NCBI RefSeq assembly: GCF_988243305.1
Contig: NZ_OZ547137.1
From: a plasmid
Reading direction: 5' to 3' (one strand)
DNA: 64,000 bases
Under the pieces are notes generated by a model, which worked only from the letters and a program-made list of their open reading frames with translations, had not been told where the DNA came from and did not search any database. This document shows, one piece after another, positions 2,269-58,164 of the stretch. The first letter of the stretch is position 1; each line of letters opens with the position of its first letter. The position numbers and the translations under genes were made by a program.

Positions 2269-3303
2269 CTAGTCATCACGGTGATTACGTTCAAATCCCC
2301 TGCGCCCTCTTGCTGCCCATTCAGCATTGAGTATCACATAACGCTCCCAGCGTTCACGCAACTGTGCGAGCTTTATCGGTAATTCTTTGGTGACAAAGGC
2401 TTCAGGTATTTCAAAGTTGTCATCAAGATGCCCTTCCAGGAATGCATGGACGCCTTCCAATACATCAACCAGAGTGATGTTGTTACTTTGTTGCCCTTCA
2501 AGAAGTGGCCCCTGCCAACTATGCCAGAAGGTCTGATGGCGCAGACAACTTTCGTCATTCGCGAGCCGCCATAAATCCATAAAGATTCCTCGAGCAACTT
2601 TGAACGGCTGTTCATCAAACTGTTCGATGAGAAAGAAATAACACGGAATCTTGAGCGCGTTAATTCGCGCAATTTCAATTTCAGCATCACGGCGCAAGGC
2701 AATCAGATTGCTAAAGCGCGATCGCATACAGGCGATAGGGTTCAACACCCTTACCTTTTCATTCATTTCAGGCATACTGGGGCCGGTTGCTTCTACATAA
2801 AACGGGGCTGTATGCAGGTAAAGCTTTTCCCCCAGAAAATCAGAACGGTCGAAGCCTCCGGGCCGATCGATAATATCCACCACATTTGGCTCGTCAGGCG
2901 CATCCGGTACGGCAAATAAACGTCCATCATCCCGTTTGATATCGTGTGTGTCCTGATCGATAAGCATAAACTGCGCAAGGGATGGGGGCTGACCGTCTTT
3001 GTTTTCCCACGTTTTCACGTTGAGCGTTTTTGCTATAGCCGCAATATCATCTTTCCGGGCACTGTAGTCGCAGTCAACAGAAGTGGTGAGACGCTCATCA
3101 GGCAATCTGTCGCCGTATTGTGCATGATAATAGGATATCCAATATTGCACAGCCTGGCCGCCAACTGTGATAACGGCATGTTTGAGCTGGTCAGCGTTGC
3201 AGATCAACTGCTGATTTAGCAGATACATCTGCTCATAGGGGGGAATAACGTCTTGAACTGGCATAAAAAAACCATCAGCGAATGATGGTTTATTGTGCCT
3301 CAA
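2269..3303 (-). CDS. hypothetical protein (344 aa), function unknown
   Basis: Long uninterrupted ORF; no family recognised with certainty. A VGGQAV...TSVDCDY stretch is loosely reminiscent of nucleotidyltransferase-fold motifs. Confidence 0.5.
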   Translation of the reverse strand: MRHNKPSFADGFFMPVQDVIPPYEQMYLLNQQLICNADQLKHAVITVGGQAVQYWISYYHAQYGDRLPDERLTTSVDCDYSARKDDIAAIAKTLNVKTWENKDGQPPSLAQFMLIDQDTHDIKRDDGRLFAVPDAPDEPNVVDIIDRPGGFDRSDFLGEKLYLHTAPFYVEATGPSMPEMNEKVRVLNPIACMRSRFSNLIALRRDAEIEIARINALKIPCYFFLIEQFDEQPFKVARGIFMDLWRLANDESCLRHQTFWHSWQGPLLEGQQSNNITLVDVLEGVHAFLEGHLDDNFEIPEAFVTKELPIKLAQLRERWERYVILNAEWAARGRRGFERNHRDD

Positions 3304-3312
3304 AGTTCAGGA

Positions 3313-3468
3313 TCAGGCAAAAGCGATAGTATGGGAGAATTTGCTATTGGCTGACTTACTGAAACGGCTTTTCACGGCAGGCTTGTAACCGGCACGACCA
3401 CGCAAAACCTGCACCGCTACGGCTTCGTAGCGTTCATGCTGCTTTTGTTTAGCTTGTGCGGGAGACAT
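3313..3468 (-). CDS. small basic hypothetical protein (~51 aa), 10 bp upstream of the 344-aa ORF
   Basis: ORF 3313..3498; probable start at the Met of MSPAQAKQKQHERYEAV. Co-oriented and tightly spaced with the downstream ORF. Confidence 0.35.
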   Translation of the reverse strand: MSPAQAKQKQHERYEAVAVQVLRGRAGYKPAVKSRFSKSANSKFSHTIAFA

Positions 3469-42452: not shown

Positions 42453-43262
42453 TTATGCGTGTCTGTTTTTCAGCATTGTGACCGCATCGGACTCAGGCAT
42501 CGAAAACTGCACCCGGTGCCGTGCAGCCACATCCAGCGCAAACACCTTCGTGTAGACCTCCGTTGAGCTGATGGACTTATGCCCCATTAGGCTCTGCAGG
42601 ACCTTCAGTGGTATACCGGCATACAGCATGTGCATCGCATAGGAATGGCGGAACGTATGTGGCGTGACCGGGACAGAGAACGTCACACCGTCAGTAGCAG
42701 CGGCGGCAACCGCCTCCCCAATCCAGGTCCTGACCGTTCTGTCCGTCACTTCCCAGATCCGCGCTTTCTCTGTCCTGCCTGTTCGTTTATTACGCCGTTC
42801 CAGAGGAACTTTCAGTGTTGCCACCATCGTCTGCAGCTGACTGACGTACCAGGAGTCGGAGAGCGGAACCAGCCGGTGAGTCTGCTGTCCGGCAGGCGTT
42901 CTTCCTGCCGTCCTGGCGGCTTTTTCGGTCCGCTGCTTCAGAGTGGCCAGCTGCACAAACGGATACGGAGGCGCGAGCGAAAAATCCCCCCGCGTCAGCG
43001 CCAGTGCTTCATTAATGCGCGCACCGGTGTTCCACAGTGTAGCCAGCAGCATCTTGCGGCGCAGATCCGGGACGTAATGGAGCAGGGCACTCACTTCCGG
43101 AGCCAGCAGATATTTCGGCAGTTCATCATGAACCATCGACATCTGGCGAAGTGCCAGAGCTGCCGGATAATCAATGACAACAGGAAGTTGTGGAGACTGT
43201 CCGGCAGAATAAACTGCCGGTACCCTGGCTGCAGACTGGCTGTGTATAACGGAGCCTGACAT
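42453..43262 (-). CDS. resD: tyrosine site-specific recombinase (ResD-like multimer resolvase)
   Basis: C-terminal catalytic motifs (HTFRHSYAMHMLYAG...STEVYTKV); immediately downstream of ccdB as in F-like plasmids. Confidence 0.85.
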   Translation of the reverse strand: MSGSVIHSQSAARVPAVYSAGQSPQLPVVIDYPAALALRQMSMVHDELPKYLLAPEVSALLHYVPDLRRKMLLATLWNTGARINEALALTRGDFSLAPPYPFVQLATLKQRTEKAARTAGRTPAGQQTHRLVPLSDSWYVSQLQTMVATLKVPLERRNKRTGRTEKARIWEVTDRTVRTWIGEAVAAAATDGVTFSVPVTPHTFRHSYAMHMLYAGIPLKVLQSLMGHKSISSTEVYTKVFALDVAARHRVQFSMPESDAVTMLKNRHA

Positions 43263-43788
<526 letters not shown>

Positions 43789-44453
43789 AGCACACCTCTT
43801 TTTGACATACTTCTGGTATGCATATCAGTATATATTCTTATGCCGCAAAAATCAGCGCGTTAATACACATACTGTTATCTGGCTTTTAGTAAGCCTTATT
43901 TATTTTTCCTTGAATTATGTTAACCAATAAAAATTAAAATCAGACTTATAAAAACAAAGCTTAATTATCGAAGGACCATTTCCGGCAGATCCGATTTTTC
44001 TGTTATTGACGGGTTTCCGGAAGTGTACCACACTGAGGAAATCATCATATCGCTGTTTTCCGCCCCTGCGCGACGCATCACAGGTCAGGGAGATGACACA
44101 ATATATAGTGTCATCAGCAGCTGAATCCGGCACCACATGTTGTGCTTACAGGAGATGGCGTTGTGTGGGGGGAGAGGAAGATCCTGAACTTACTTTTTTC
44201 GGATCTCTGGAAAAGAAAGGAGTGAGGGATAAAAACTGACATTATTAAAAATATAAAAGCAATGCTTAAAAAGCATAAAAGCAATTTTTGTAATTACTAC
44301 TAGTACTACAAGAAGAATCTATAGTTTGAGGCGGCGTTCATGGCGGTGATCGAGCCGGACACGATTCCGGCATTAGCTGAGCTACTCACACTGAACGGGG
44401 ATCTCTTACGCGTAGACCGGCTGCCGTTCTTCTCAGAGAAGCGGTAGCCGTGG

Positions 44454-52768: not shown

Positions 52769-53280
52769 GCCAAGCTCTGCGGCGTGCAGACGCTGTACTT
52801 GTCAACGCCACGATCTTTGACCGTCTTATATCGACAGAGTTATCCGGCATGGTGTCAATCCGTTCACAATTTTTCCATCGGAGCAGCCTACCACCGGTGA
52901 TAACCTGACTTTGCCTGTAGTTTGTATACACAACCCCTGGCATTGAAACAAACATATGAAGTGTACTTCGGATATGACTGTACGCTCAGGAAGTACGGCA
53001 GATTCCGTCAAAAATTACCTGTAAAGACAGACATCAGAAAAACAGTGCTCGCCGCAGACCGGTGACCGGGCGAAGCCCGCGAACCGGCGAGGAAGCGCAA
53101 TGGATCTGTAGTTACAGTGAGCAGGTACGCCCTGAAGCCTTCATAATCGGTAGTGTATGCTGTTTTTCTGGAATGATTTATCCACATATCCAGAGGCCCG
53201 ATCCAGTAAACAGATCCATGAATGATCAACAAAGGATCCATTAAAGATCCCCATATCGCTGCAAACCTTGTCATTAATGG

Positions 53281-53420
53281 TCCGGGAGCACGATCACATA
53301 AGCTGTGGCATGTTACTGATAAACTGTAACAGGTTCATGATAAGCTGTATTCAGTAATACATATACTGCCGTAAGTTAATGACATAAACTATGGTCAGTA
53401 TGCCAGACTCAGTTGTTAAA
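53281..53420. promoter_or_regulatory. RepFIB upstream iterons (direct repeats)
   Basis: Repeated cataagctgtgg / gataaactgtaac / gataagctgtattc units. Confidence 0.7.
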
Positions 53421-53553
53421 TACAGGCTGCAGGTTTTTCTTCAGTCAGTTGACGGGGTTCTGACACACGATTTTCTGTTTATTCTTTTACTGTCCACAGG
53501 CAGGAGGCTTTCTGGAAAACGAAAATTCAGACATCAAAAAACTGTTCGGCGAG

Positions 53554-54531
53554 GTGGATAAGTCGTCCGGTGAGCTGGTGACACTGACACCAAACAATAA
53601 CAACACCGTACAACCTGTGGCGCTGATGCGTCTGGGCGTCTTTGTACCGACCCTTAAATCACTGAAGAACAGTAAAAAAAATACACTGTCACGTACTGAT
53701 GCCACGGAAGAGCTGACACGTCTTTCCCTGGCCCGTGCAGAGGGATTCGATAAAGTTGAGATCACCGGCCCCCGCCTGGATATGGATAACGATTTCAAGA
53801 CCTGGGTGGGGATCATTCATTCCTTTGCCCGCCATAACGTAATTGGTGACAAAGTTGAACTGCCTTTTGTCGAGTTTGCAAAACTGTGTGGTATACCTTC
53901 AAGCCAGTCATCCCGCAGGCTGCGTGAGCGCATCAGCCCTTCCCTGAAGCGCATTGCCGGTACCGTGATTTCGTTTTCCCGTACCGATGAGAAGCACACC
54001 CGGGAATATATCACCCATCTGGTACAGTCAGCCTACTACGATACTGAGCGGGATATTGTGCAGTTACAGGCCGATCCCCGCCTGTTTGAACTGTACCAGT
54101 TTGACAGAAAAGTCCTTCTCCAGCTTAAGGCGATTAATGCCCTGAAGCGACGGGAGTCCGCCCAGGCACTCTACACCTTTATAGAGAGCCTGCCCCGGGA
54201 TCCGGCACCGGTATCGCTGGCGCGGCTGCGTGCACGCCTCAATCTGAAGTCTCCTGTATTTTCCCAGAACCAGACGGTCAGACGGGCAATGGAGCAGTTG
54301 CGCGAGATTGGATACCTTGATTACACGGAGATCCAGCGGGGGCGGACAAAATTCTTCTGTATTCACTACCGGCGTCCCCGGTTAAAAGCGCCGAATGATG
54401 AGAGTAAGGAAAATCCGTTGCCACCTTCACCTGCGGAAAAAGTCAGTCCGGAGATGGCGGAGAAACTTGCCCTGCTTGAAAAACTGGGCATCACACTGGA
54501 TGACCTGGAAAAACTCTTCAAATCCCGCTGA
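53554..54531 (+). CDS. repA: RepFIB replication initiator RepA
   Basis: 325 aa [65 protein letters not shown]...; iteron arrays on both sides. Confidence 0.9.
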
Positions 54532-54539
54532 ACATAAAC

Positions 54540-54800
54540 TGTAGTCAGTGAAGAGTGCTCCTTTACTGACTACAGCTTATATTATCAGGTGCAGTGAGTG
54601 GTCCGCTCACTGCAGTTTATATTCAGTTTCCTGCAGTGCTGCCTGTGGCTGAGCTGCCATCTGCCTGTCCCTTACGTGAGTCACCCCGTAACCTGATGCT
54701 GAGGCATTGCTCCCTTCATAAAACATGGTTTACTCACTACAGCTTATCTACCTGCTCCAGCTTATGTTATGTCTGTTCTGCTGACCACTGCTTATATAAG
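54540..54800. promoter_or_regulatory. RepFIB downstream iterons
   Basis: Repeated ctacagcttatat / actgcagtttatat / ccactgcttatataag units. Confidence 0.7.
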
Positions 54801-54809
54801 GAAGTGCCG

Positions 54810-55550
54810 TTACTTCAGGGGAGGCAGTGTACGCAGGATCTCCGCAGCATCCCGACCGTCACCTGTGAAAGGCACTGCCAGCGTGGCAGCCATATCCAGT
54901 GCAAACACTCTGGTATAAACCTCCATCGAACGTGGATCCCTGTGACCAGCCAGTGCCTGGATGACTTTCCGGGGCTGGCGGTGATAGAGCATGTGCATGA
55001 TATAGCTGTGCCGGAAGGTATGCGGCGTCACCGGAATCGAAAAGTGTACCCCGTCAGCTTCGGCCCGTCTGACAGCCTGCTTCAGCCAGTTGCGCATGGT
55101 TTCGTCGGTCACGGCCCATAATGGTTCACGACGACGGGGCCGGGTAGTGATCATCCAGCTTTCCATCTGCCTGACATAGCTTATATCTGTCAGCGGAACC
55201 AGGCGCACTTCATCTTTTGGCGGGCGTCCGCGTCGCGCACGCACTTTTTCGGACAGGATCCGCACAAACGGTCTTGCACCATCCAGGTCAAATGATTCCG
55301 GCGTCAGCATCCGGGCTTCGCCAATACGCATTCCGGTATTCCAGAGGGTGGCGAACAGCATATGGTGACGCTGATCCGGCATATAGAAAAGAAGGGCACT
55401 CACTTCCGGGGCCAGCAGATAGGCCGGTGTGGCCCCCGTGGAAGTGGCCATTCTTCTCAGGGAGAGCGCTGTTGCAAAATCCACCCCCGGCGCAATGGGT
55501 AACAGGGAAACGCGTTCTGGTGAATTCTGCAGGGGAATGACATTGTTCAT
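54810..55550 (-). CDS. int: tyrosine site-specific recombinase (F-plasmid Int/ResD-like)
   Basis: [39 protein letters not shown]... with catalytic [13 protein letters not shown]...MEVYTRV. Confidence 0.85.
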
Positions 55551-55913
55551 GAGTTATTTTTCACGTAGCACACGCACTGTTTATGGATACAGGTATTCTG
55601 ACCTGAACGCCCGGATCCTTCCACGACAATAAATCGCAGCACGCGGATCCTTTTGTTTGCTTATCACGCATTATTGCGGGTAAAACCAAATACGTAAAGG
55701 CGCGTTTTGCAGCAGGGATCCCGTCTTAAGCCAGTCGTGGCGCGGGCTGATGGCTGGTTTGCCGTCTTTGGGAGAAATGGGGTAATGCCAGGACAAACAG
55801 GATCGGACCAAAAGGAAAAGGAGCAGGGAAGAAGGAGGATGCGCTACGTGAATTCTGACCTGGTACACCCCTGTAACCCTGCCAGTTTTCACGTAGCGCA
55901 ATGTGGTTGCTAC

Positions 55914-56210
55914 CTAACACCAGTTGAGATGAGAGCCGGCATCCTGATGCTGGATTAATATACGGATAATAATAATTTCAGTATCAGTCTGCAGAAAATA
56001 AAGCATATGTCGTTCAACGGATAGTGCGAATATGTATTCCCCCAGTTCAGGGCGGGGAGTACCGATATTATGATCACTCATAACCTGAAAAATATCGGAT
56101 ATCTGATTAATATATTTGTCTGCTTGATCCTCACCAAAATGGCGGCACCCGTAATACCAGATATCCTCCAGATCCTGACTGGCTTTCGGTGTGAGTTTAA
56201 CGGTTTTCAC
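55914..56210 (-). CDS. parE: ParE/RelE-family toxin
   Basis: 98 aa, DLEDIWYYGCRHFGEDQADKY...; overlaps the upstream antitoxin gene. Confidence 0.8.
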   Translation of the reverse strand: MKTVKLTPKASQDLEDIWYYGCRHFGEDQADKYINQISDIFQVMSDHNIGTPRPELGEYIFALSVERHMLYFLQTDTEIIIIRILIQHQDAGSHLNWC

Positions 56211-56463
56211 CGGCCCCCCTCGTGCCAGCTTTAACTTTCTTCAGGAACGCATCTTTTTCCCACACCACAGGTTCACCGCTGCTCAGGCCTTCTGCCAGTA
56301 AATCCCGCAGGGCCTGGAGACGTGACTCTGCCTGTTTCTCGCGCAGGAGACGAAGTGACTCGCGGATTACTTCACTCTGTGTACGGTAATCACCTGATTC
56401 TATGAGAGATTCTATGTACTCCCAGAGTTCATCTCCGAGAGCAACTGTCATTGTTCTGGCCAT
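56197..56463 (-). CDS. parD: ParD-like antitoxin
   Basis: 88 aa, N-terminal RHH-like MARTMTVALGDELWEYIESLIESGDYRTQSEVIRESLRLLRE. Confidence 0.8.
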   Translation of the reverse strand: MARTMTVALGDELWEYIESLIESGDYRTQSEVIRESLRLLREKQAESRLQALRDLLAEGLSSGEPVVWEKDAFLKKVKAGTRGAGENR

Positions 56464-56994
56464 ATCAAGCCTCGTGATTGTAAGTTTAAATTTTACATGC
56501 AGTTTATTCGATACTCAAAGGTGCTTCCAGTACAGAACATTTGGGAGAATTGGGGTAATGCCTGGAACAGACAGATACGGAGAAAAACCCTGCAGATAAC
56601 CTTATACGACAACTGAAGGTGTCTGATGCCATATTCTTAGCTACTTCTCTGTCTTCAGGCGGCTTAGTCACAACATAAGACCGATGCATAATAAGCATAT
56701 TTTTTCATGTTATGGTCTTGTTCATGCATGAACTATTATCTATTCAGTCACTTTTAAAGTTTTATATCATACTGCATATGATATATATCATCTCCTATAT
56801 TCAGACTAAAAATATTATGACGATGGTCAAATGAATTTAGTGAAAACGCTACCTAAAACAATATGCTTATGATATAACTTATCAAGAATATGCGACAATC
56901 TTCTTGAAAGGTTACGGAGAAGAGTCAGATAATGAAGTGTTATAACTCATTCAGCTTTTTTATGTTCTCTTTATAGTAAAACTAGGAGATTAAG

Positions 56995-58164
56995 ATGAAT
57001 CAGAAGTGGAAGACGTTAATTATTTCATTATTAACACCATCAAGTATTATATCAGGGATTGCGTTGATAGTTCTCTGGGGATATTTCAGTCGCCTGGGCC
57101 GACTAGATATTTTCTTTGATGTAATGAATATTAAAAGCATCTTGGTATTGGTTTGTTGTGCAACTATACTATCATTGGCTATGATAGTATTTATCTTTTT
57201 TATAACCTCTTTTTTTATACCCGTAGTTATTCCTCAGGATATAAATAATCTTCCTGCTTACAATAAGATTCAGGGTAATTTTTTATCTGTGATGATGTTA
57301 TCTGGCATGTTCCCCATGGCCTTTATATATGTGTTATACTGTGCATTTGATTTTGATCAGAATGTTAAAGATAACTCTGGCTGGTTATCTATTGCAAGTA
57401 TGGGTGTACTGATAGCTGTTATTTTAGCCATAGTAAATAAGAGGTATCTTGAATATGACTTATCGTTTAAAAACAATAGAATGAAACTGTTGAGACGTGT
57501 TCAGATCTATCTTGTCATTCCGTTGTCTATTGCTTTACTGGTGCATCTTCAGTTAATTCCTCTGGAGATAGTTTTTAGGAATATTGCAACTTCAGATAAG
57601 AGTGTTAATTTCAAAGTGATAGCCGAACTGGCTTTCATGTCATATTTTATCTTTCTTCTGACAATGCTTCCTGGAGTCATTTATCTGAAAATGAATCCAC
57701 AGCATAAATTTTCAAAAAGAATTAGCTATTCATTTATCGCATCCTTGATGTTATTATTAATAATATCGACTCAAATAACCGTGTTACCAGTGATTTTTAC
57801 CCATTCCGTTATTAAGCTATCAGGTATAAGTGACTTCAAAATACATAGCTACATTATTAAATCAAGTGAATATCCTGAAGAGTTTTTTTCCAATGCAGCA
57901 TGGGATAAAAAAAATATAAAACCGGGGGATTATTACTCTGTGCAGGCTGTTTCTATGTTTACGACAAACCAGTTTATTCTCCTTTGTCCTAAGGATATTA
58001 TAAAGTTTTATCGGGAAAGCTGGAAGTTCGAGTTGCTTAATGTAGACTTCGATATAAATACCAGGAAGAAACTCCAGGAAGAAGCTGCATATTGCGTACC
58101 AATTTCTGCAATATCTGTAAAACGATGGGATATGCCTCTTCAGGGCTCGAAACCCTCAAGTTAG
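56995..58164 (+). CDS. hypothetical multi-pass membrane protein (389 aa), AT-rich
   Basis: Multiple hydrophobic segments; good RBS (aggag) upstream of the ATG; no family recognised. Confidence 0.55.
   Translation: MNQKWKTLIISLLTPSSIISGIALIVLWGYFSRLGRLDIFFDVMNIKSILVLVCCATILSLAMIVFIFFITSFFIPVVIPQDINNLPAYNKIQGNFLSVMMLSGMFPMAFIYVLYCAFDFDQNVKDNSGWLSIASMGVLIAVILAIVNKRYLEYDLSFKNNRMKLLRRVQIYLVIPLSIALLVHLQLIPLEIVFRNIATSDKSVNFKVIAELAFMSYFIFLLTMLPGVIYLKMNPQHKFSKRISYSFIASLMLLLIISTQITVLPVIFTHSVIKLSGISDFKIHSYIIKSSEYPEEFFSNAAWDKKNIKPGDYYSVQAVSMFTTNQFILLCPKDIIKFYRESWKFELLNVDFDINTRKKLQEEAAYCVPISAISVKRWDMPLQGSKPSS

Follow-up and report, generated by a model that had tools for sequence, protein, structure and literature searches.

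Among described plasmid systems, the closest to the locus presented here are the ResD/rfsF recombination systems, and those compared were F ResD (the D protein) with rfsF, RsdB/crs of Salmonella virulence plasmids, and ResD/rfsF of IncI1 R64 and of IncR plasmids. ResD reportedly serves as both repressor and resolvase, according to the title of a 1986 article by Lane et al. that is cited in PMC5587640. The rfsF site has been described as a pair of 10-14-bp inverted repeats with a 6-8-bp spacer (PMC5587640), and homology between plasmids ends at rfsF (PMC9412624, PMC8004404). In the Tn3 family, toxin-antitoxin (TA) pairs have been found embedded next to the res site and the resolvase gene (PMC7157771). 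The locus in question lies in a 64,000-nucleotide stretch of a multireplicon F-type plasmid (NCBI RefSeq assembly GCF_988243305.1, contig NZ_OZ547137.1), hereafter the window, where the gene int (54810-55550, minus strand) encodes a 246-aa tyrosine recombinase consisting of a catalytic domain only and linked to a RepFIB replicon. Short direct and inverted repeats occupy int codons 1-11 and nearly the whole of the 363-bp gap between int and the toxin gene parE. Our preferred reading, which we put at slightly under an even chance, is that these repeats would form an uncharacterised cis-acting locus of a ResD-family Int, used for recombinase binding, regulation and recombination. We found no description in the literature searched of the function of the RepFIB int, of its site, or of these sequence strings.

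The cis-acting locus begins at the int start codon and ends near 55900, with its parts in the order PE-1, a promoter dyad with GGATCC boxes, D1, a linker, and PE-2, where PE stands for palindromic element. The initial annotation had reported several short strings repeated in this region, and every one of them is present, with two coordinates off by one base: the copies of TTTTCACGTAGC are real, and start at 55558 and 55886 rather than at 55557 and 55887. GCTACGTGAA was found at 55843-55852 (plus strand), 55560-55569 (minus) and 55888-55897 (minus), GTGAATTCTG at 55520 and 55848, and ATTCTGACCTG at 55595 and 55852. The clustering is non-random, as the three occurrences of GCTACGTGAA in the 64-kb window all fall inside 340 bp, while shuffles predict 0.07 occurrences and none of 100 shuffles reached three. 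GTGAATTCTG is a 10-mer that taken alone would be poor evidence; its two copies and those of the 15-mer TTTTCACGTAGCRCA (55558 and 55886) share an identical 328-bp offset, and segments 55511-55572 and 55839-55900 are therefore collinear. Aligned without gaps, these segments agree at 33 of 62 positions (shuffles 15.3 +/- 3.4, maximum 27 in 2000; z about 5). GAATTCTGACCTG, allowing up to two mismatches, had 6 matches in the whole window with 1.3 expected, a number reached by 1 of 100 shuffles, and such sites are not clearly enriched window-wide; the copy at 55593-55605 showed no conservation in Klebsiella. That the repeats arose by chance and have no function is a reading of negligible probability. 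The GAATTCTGACCTG-like sites and the GTGAATTCTG copy inside int codons are individually weak, as that reading would have it, yet the shuffles of the three-copy motif, the collinearity, and the conservation across genera and thousands of plasmids already refute it. The repeat copies are a structured element, more so than the initial annotation said, and not a loose cluster.

The same annotation had supposed that the adjacent gene encodes a tyrosine recombinase, and this was borne out by a Pfam PF00589 match at Int residues 51-216 and by paralogy to F-type ResD. The catalytic domain begins after only about 40 residues, and Xer profiles matched with their C-terminal halves only (e.g. positions 92-254 of 263 in the XerA profile). 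The catalytic R, H-x-x-R, H and Y motifs are kept in an alignment with IntI4, and at least 5000 plasmid records contain int. A true paralogue of F-type ResD, Int shares 46.9% identity over residues 5-240 with the ResD of the same window (E 9e-61), and 49% with a second ResD-like protein. The protein encoded at 42453-43262 (minus strand) was taken to be ResD, since it follows ccdA (43570-43788, minus) and ccdB (43263-43568, minus); this is the paralogous system of the plasmid. Upstream of ccdA, a candidate rfsF core, GAGATGACAC-AATATATA-GTGTCATCAG (44090-44117), has perfect 8-bp arms and an 8-bp AT spacer. The 260-bp island around it (43963-44222) shares 83% identity with R64, and resD shares 95%; between island and resD the gene content differs, with ccdAB here and a 137-aa open reading frame (ORF) in R64. 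The R64 rfsF has been placed in that island (PMC8004404), and the palindrome at 44090-44117 fits the published description of rfsF.

PE-2, at 55840-55900, is a 61-bp imperfect palindrome that starts 13 bp past the parE stop codon, and its arms are the second and third motif copies of the initial annotation. Folded as single-stranded DNA it reached -19 kcal/mol (shuffles -6.2 +/- 2.1; z = -6.0), with a 19-bp stem composed of 12 bp, a TT/TT mismatch and 5 bp, and a variable terminal structure of 21-25 nt. Compensatory changes, paired on both arms, were observed in L008, L006 and L007. In Klebsiella plasmids of the IncFIB(K) type, where parDE is missing next to int, PE-2 is conserved there on its own. 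The PE left arm was used as the pattern for a metagenome scan, so that its invariance among the matches is true by construction; of 83 matches, 43 had an inverted partner 44-48 nt away, mostly at 45 nt. Thirty-one distinct PE sequences were collected from metagenome and plasmid loci, and 30 of them folded at z values of -4.2 to -11.1, with one weak case at -1.7. The arms, together with the 44-48-nt arm-to-arm offset, were retained around at least 8 unrelated centres, which points to sequence-specific recognition rather than to structure alone.

PE recurs upstream of the RepFIB-linked int, upstream of a 343-aa tyrosine recombinase gene, and right after the stop codons of operons. The operons abutting PE and read towards int encode ParE homologues (39-100% identical), or are a hyp-resD operon or others. 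At six loci of Pantoea-type plasmids (L043, L080, L102, L103, L109 and L125), the start codon of the 343-aa recombinase is preceded by PE at a distance of 37-60 bp, the proteins being 61-100% identical to each other. PE is near-perfect at these loci, with arms of up to 22 bp, and an extra CAGTTTTCAC half-copy stands 10 nt from the ATG. The 21-bp PE centre is flipped between close relatives among them with flanks collinear, 20 of 21 positions being identical to the reverse complement, compared with 2 of 21 in direct orientation.

The palindrome could also be read at the level of transcription. In that case PE-2 would be a terminator, an insulator or a 3′-end stabiliser for the operon read towards int, the minus-strand pyrimidine tract together with D1 would be a Rho-loading region, the box next to the int start codon would serve int as a promoter or as a signal for translation, the likeness of the copies would date from an old duplication, and the rearrangements described below would have arisen by slippage or short-repeat homologous exchange. 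We consider this explanation unlikely, but deserving of serious weight. PE-2 is placed directly after parE, and in other plasmids it stands 64 bp after a resD-like stop codon; the hairpin is strong and has compensatory changes; a C/U-rich, G-poor tract on the minus strand follows PE in all lineages; and GGAUUUUUAA follows PE on the plus strand at the 343-aa recombinase loci. Template switching can moreover flip the loops of palindromes. However, a scan for intrinsic terminators over 55400-57000 on both strands returned 0 sites, and most contexts have no U-run after the stem, which is followed in PE-2 by AUCCUCCUUCUU on the minus strand or AAUGUGGUUGCU on the plus strand. The arms are conserved in sequence, and not just in pairing, across unrelated centres and flanks. 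A terminator upstream of the 343-aa recombinase would block the gene, because PE is only about 34 nt from the ATG, a gap that suits a terminator badly. A conserved RNA fold was sought across lineages in the int leader and around the start-proximal box and was not found, and Rfam covariance models run over 53000-58000 gave only a chance match to a miRNA model outside the region (E 0.097).

PE may instead act as folded single-stranded DNA, either as an attC-like substrate or as a primosome initiation signal beside the replicon, in replication or transfer, a proposal that we regard as rather improbable. The folded attC of integrons combines a variable loop with two boxes and a central spacer that stays unpaired, and the 19-bp stem with its variable cap resembles it. 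PE is found at the 3′ end of cassette-like operons beside a tyrosine recombinase gene, its 21-bp centre exists in both orientations (flip/flop) among close relatives, and a replication gene is always beside the locus. These points are set against an Int that has neither the signature of an integron integrase nor an N-terminal DNA-binding domain, the lack of a GTTRRRY core at the cassette borders by inspection, and a maximum of two units in a row. A flipped centre of the IncFIB-type PE-2 was absent from 72,556 plasmids, where the best match reached 93.8%.

The other end of the locus is PE-1 (55511-55572), a degenerate copy of the palindromic element that spans the int start codon and codons 1-14. 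PE-1 is a poor palindrome, and its 328-bp offset from PE-2 is retained in four further lineages. Nearly zero synonymous change was seen between genera in int codons 1-14, which include the 55520 copy of GTGAATTCTG (codons 8-11), whereas codons 15-20 do change synonymously. This constraint is not decisive, because start regions are often constrained for other reasons. The right end of PE-1 is the start-proximal box TTTTTCACGTAGCACA (55557-55572), located 7 nt from the int ATG and corresponding to the first motif copy of the initial annotation. To examine the control region, 13 lineages from E. coli to Erwinia and Pantoea were aligned, with Int 66-100% identical. TTTTCAC.(T/C)AGC of the start-proximal box was near-invariant in all of them, including Erwinia and Pantoea, where Int is 66-80% identical. 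The alignment resolved into discrete conserved blocks, namely the TTTTCACGTAGC box, CAATAAATCGC, the GGATCC boxes, the int promoter, and D1 at the end, and the motif cluster is conserved in sequence across genera while adjoining bases drift. The suggestion that the repeats belong to a regulatory region thus holds, as this is the conserved upstream control region of int.

Within the control region, the int promoter was located by a promoter scan on the minus strand, with TTTACG at 55698-55693, a 17-nt spacer, and AATAAT at 55675-55670, and both hexamers and their spacing are kept in the 13 lineages. An imperfect dyad, GTTTGCTTATCACGC-ATTATT-GCGGGTAAAACCAAAT, overlies it at 55655-55691, where its 6-bp spacer is the int -10 hexamer and its position is conserved. 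The dyad is weak in E. coli and clearer in Pantoea (ATTTGGTTTTACCCGC-AGATTA-GCGGGTTATCCAAAT); it ranks best or second-best in 4 of 13 lineages, with z from 3.2 to 4.1, and as a real feature it is suggestive only. Conserved GGATCC boxes, which contain the Dam GATC, stand at 55613-18, 55645-50 and 55716-21, on both sides of the dyad. Lineages have two or three of them, and no 9-mer of the region recurs more consistently than GGATCCTT (11 of 11 lineages). One GGATCC box is invariant in the 13 lineages, as is the CAATAAATCGC box (55627-37). The inner part of the PE left arm has an orphan copy, TACAGGTATTCTGACCTG (55588-55605, plus strand), which includes ATTCTGACCTG and matches 55845-55862 at 15 of 18 positions; it was seen only in the E. 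coli lineage, with no conservation in Klebsiella, and is the centre of the best-scoring E. coli dyad. As a separate observation, a mini-ORF of 4-5 codons (GTG AAA A.. ... TGA, 55551-55567) begins in the start-proximal conserved box. In all lineages examined, the stop codon of this mini-ORF shares bases with the int ATG (ATGA), an arrangement suggestive of translational coupling or of a leaderless start.

D1a, the 27-bp box TTTGGGAGAAATGGGGTAATGCCAGGA at 55767-55793 (plus strand), is the outer limit of the conserved int module, and a second copy that is 93% identical, D1b, lies at 56540-56566 (plus strand), so that the window has 2 copies with 0.00 expected. D1 does not vary among Enterobacteriaceae, E. 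coli, Klebsiella and Phytobacter included, and at least 5000 plasmid records contain it. These boxes, the promoter dyad and the GGATCC boxes were overlooked by the initial annotation and are the more informative elements. Between D1a and PE-2, a linker (55794-55839) is purine-rich on the plus strand and pyrimidine-rich on the minus strand; its sequence diverges rapidly between lineages, with A+G composition and position retained. A degenerate linker and a hairpin remnant also follow D1b, to about 56660. Two further observations concern the box itself: D1 looks like two degenerate 9-mers, GGGAGAATT and GGGGTAATG, and upstream of int in L011 (Escherichia albertii) the GGGAGAATT unit within D1 has expanded to about 12 tandem copies.

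Breakpoints of natural rearrangements fall at the PE arms and at D1. In plasmid L002, which has a single D1, exactly the 773 bp between the D1 copies are absent, a segment that contains the linker, PE-2, parE, parD and the parDE promoter. Contigs L118 and L097 have a full second D1-linker-PE unit after parD, so that tandem units flank parDE, and there were never more than two D1 or PE units per locus. From the 4507 plasmids that matched, a sample spread over the ranks was taken, and 13 of its 30 alignments break off no more than 3 bp from the D1 end. About 395 extra D1 places were counted in 5000 records, and the two that were examined have the same parDE arrangement. In an Enterobacter plasmid family, a deletion has fused the PE-1 left arm to D1 (TGGTGAA joined to ATGGGGTAATGCCAGG), leaving int a pseudogene. 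Several plasmids have insertion sequences (IS) at the locus (L003 at about 2140, L014 upstream of int, and L005 at about 3541), with IS2 36 bp past D1, the PE right arm interrupted by an IS whose end (GGCTTTGTTGAATAAATCG) is IS903-like, and an IS3-family element just beyond PE.

The variants of D1 bear on one more alternative, in which D1 would be an outward promoter for an RNA of about 120 nt with a purine-rich 5′ part and the PE-2 hairpin at its end, the 3′ arm of which, UUUUCACGUAGCGCA, would be antisense to the part of the int leader immediately before the AUG and so control int translation. D1 in the form TGGTATAAT (Erwinia) or TGGGAGAAT (E. coli) resembles an extended -10 on the plus strand, the order of D1, linker and PE is constant with similar length, and the PE-2 right arm is complementary to the int leader at 14 of 15 positions. 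We nevertheless judge this alternative very unlikely, as the last position of the -10 is A, not T, in half of the lineages, the antisense stretch is buried in the stem, and Rfam gave no match. Furthermore, most E. coli plasmids and all Erwinia/Pantoea loci lack PE-2 and still have the start-proximal box. Long-range pairing between D1 and the PE loop was also considered and dropped, because D1 is invariant while the loop varies. A small ORF over D1 (55671-55901, minus strand; 3272-3460, minus strand, in L002; 62-76 aa) was rejected as well; neither the ORF nor its start is conserved, a stop codon interrupts it in Klebsiella, no family matched it, and it is probably spurious. Public annotations of it vary among hypothetical protein, transcriptional regulator, and serine/threonine kinase.

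Taken together, the conserved arms at unrelated centres, the fixed position of PE beside genes of two recombinase families, and the breakpoints at PE and D1 make recognition by a protein and site-specific exchange the best supported explanation. Under the favoured reading of the locus as the site of Int, the recombinase would bind the shared PE-arm motif (GCGCTACGTGAA...), D1 and the dyad boxes. Occupying the promoter dyad and the start-proximal box, Int would repress its own gene, by analogy with what the title of Lane et al. implies for ResD. Like sites on two plasmid copies would pair, allowing multimer resolution, and if the sites were on different replicons or circles, this reaction would exchange the DNA outside them. 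Such a swap would explain why parDE lies between two D1 boxes and why varied operons abut PE.

Several observations weigh against recombination at this locus. The initial annotation had proposed an rfsF-like resolution site, and this part of it failed on both sequence and architecture. Local alignment of the int upstream region with the rfsF/oriV1 island of this plasmid detected no similarity, with scores of 27 and 21 compared with 23.7 +/- 2.4 (maximum 34) for shuffles. The flagged motifs fall outside the rfsF architecture because their arms are about 35 bp apart; they have no canonical core with 10-14-bp arms and a 6-8-bp spacer, and dyad scans for such a core gave weak candidates only. The promoter dyad is statistically weak, with z of 3-4 among about 1000 positions, and an intact PE-2 is missing from the majority E. 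coli type. The 343-aa recombinase and Int have no detectable similarity, so that their sharing of the same arms is hard to explain. The apparent junction at D1 is partly fast linker drift and not exchange, as several lineages regain similarity at PE-2. Only one type of D1-flanked cassette was found, other parDE variants having no second D1, and 27-bp repeats such as D1 could recombine without Int, by RecA-dependent or slippage deletion. The earlier interpretation was right in kind, the repeats most likely being sites of a ResD-like recombinase and its control region, and wrong in the detail of their likeness to rfsF.

The neighbouring genes complete the picture of the locus. The RepFIB gene repB (53554-54531, plus strand) is convergent with int. 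On the other side, parE (55914-56210, minus strand; Pfam ParE_toxin 7e-12) and parD (56197-56463, minus strand; Pfam ParD_antitoxin 9e-17) have their own promoter at 56518-56490 (minus strand; promoter scan). They are followed by a gene for a 389-aa multi-pass membrane protein (56995-58164, plus strand), for which Pfam and NCBIfam searches yielded zero family matches, and which directly adjoins D1 in plasmids without the parDE module. L004, L037 and L038 have the same 1.45-kb spacing between int and the gene for the 389-aa protein, with DNA 92-95% identical, yet no parD or parE coding sequence is listed for them; these may be pseudogenes, or may have been omitted from the plasmid gene table. 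Two palindromes were observed at 54543-54615 between repB and int, AGTCAGTGAA-N9-TTTACTGACT and GTGCAGTGAG-TGGTCCG-CTCACTGCAG. With arms of 9 bp and a spacer of 7 bp, the latter is laid out like a recombinase core; both could equally be terminators or RepFIB repeats. Upstream of the 389-aa protein, an AT-rich palindrome, TTTATATCAT-ACTGCAT-ATGATATATA (9 of 10; 56761-56787), overlaps a predicted plus-strand promoter, and its reverse complement starts with GGAGATGA, the same as the rfsF arm.

We believe that the locus deserves attention since sequenced virulence and resistance plasmids with int next to RepFIB number in the many thousands, and the gene is annotated in them merely as a site-specific integrase. 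If the locus is indeed the recombination site of Int, it would explain the sharp mosaic boundary of IncFIB plasmids and the arrival of TA and other modules beside the replicon, and it would give a concrete set of sites (PE arms, D1 and promoter dyad) for a widespread recombinase without the usual DNA-binding domain. A hairpin common to two unrelated recombinase families is unexpected and needs its own explanation.

Among other site-specific systems, FimB and FimE share with Int a small size (about 200-250 aa) and the lack of the usual N-terminal domain, and the inverted motif copies here, 267 bp apart, enclose the int promoter. The inverted copies at 55560-72 and 55840-52 were considered as the ends of an invertible switch, and this idea was rejected: an artificial inverted junction was covered by 0 of the 5000 best-scoring plasmid records. 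Unlike the FimB/FimE systems, most plasmids have no second inverted copy, and Int gave no match to the FimB/FimE family at E <= 0.01.

There is also a likeness to integrons in architecture. Here, too, a tyrosine recombinase gene adjoins a conserved site, and a roughly 60-bp imperfect palindrome with conserved ends and a variable centre stands 3′ of a self-promoted TA module that is cleanly present or absent. In contrast to integrons, the cassettes face int rather than away from it, the borders have no GTTRRRY core, there are at most two units in a row, and cassette types are few. Int is also not IntI, since it scored 51 bits against the integron-integrase model TIGR02249, over residues 155-219 only, where the cut-off is 265. 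A bolder idea is that IncFIB plasmids (including F, pO157, ColV and Klebsiella IncFIB(K) types) have an integron-like platform, in which Int would capture, excise and swap self-promoted modules (parDE variants, the resD operon) through a composite site of D1 and PE hairpin, possibly as folded single-stranded DNA, with the hairpin shared by the 343-aa family. We offer this as speculation and give it little credence.

The res sites of the Tn3 family, with which TnpI/IRS of Tn4430 is grouped for this comparison, are likewise multi-part sites that overlap the recombinase promoter, combine inverted and direct repeats, and have a TA pair between site and resolvase gene. By analogy, TA modules would be lodged at the Int site as they are in Tn3-family res regions. 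Those systems differ in being transposon-borne, most with serine resolvases.

The ResD/rfsF systems remain the nearest comparison. rfsF is compact, with 8-bp arms and an 8-bp spacer, whereas PE has 19-bp arms about 21-25 bp apart, and exchange points here are marked by a separate 27-bp direct-repeat box. In addition, int has its own promoter and is not the last gene of a TA operon, as resD is in ccdAB-resD. In both cases, a homologous short tyrosine recombinase (47% identity) is encoded next to a replicon, its gene is directly preceded by a TA operon of like orientation (ccdAB-resD and parDE-int), a conserved non-coding island is found upstream with variable genes between it and the recombinase gene, and homology between plasmids stops at the site.

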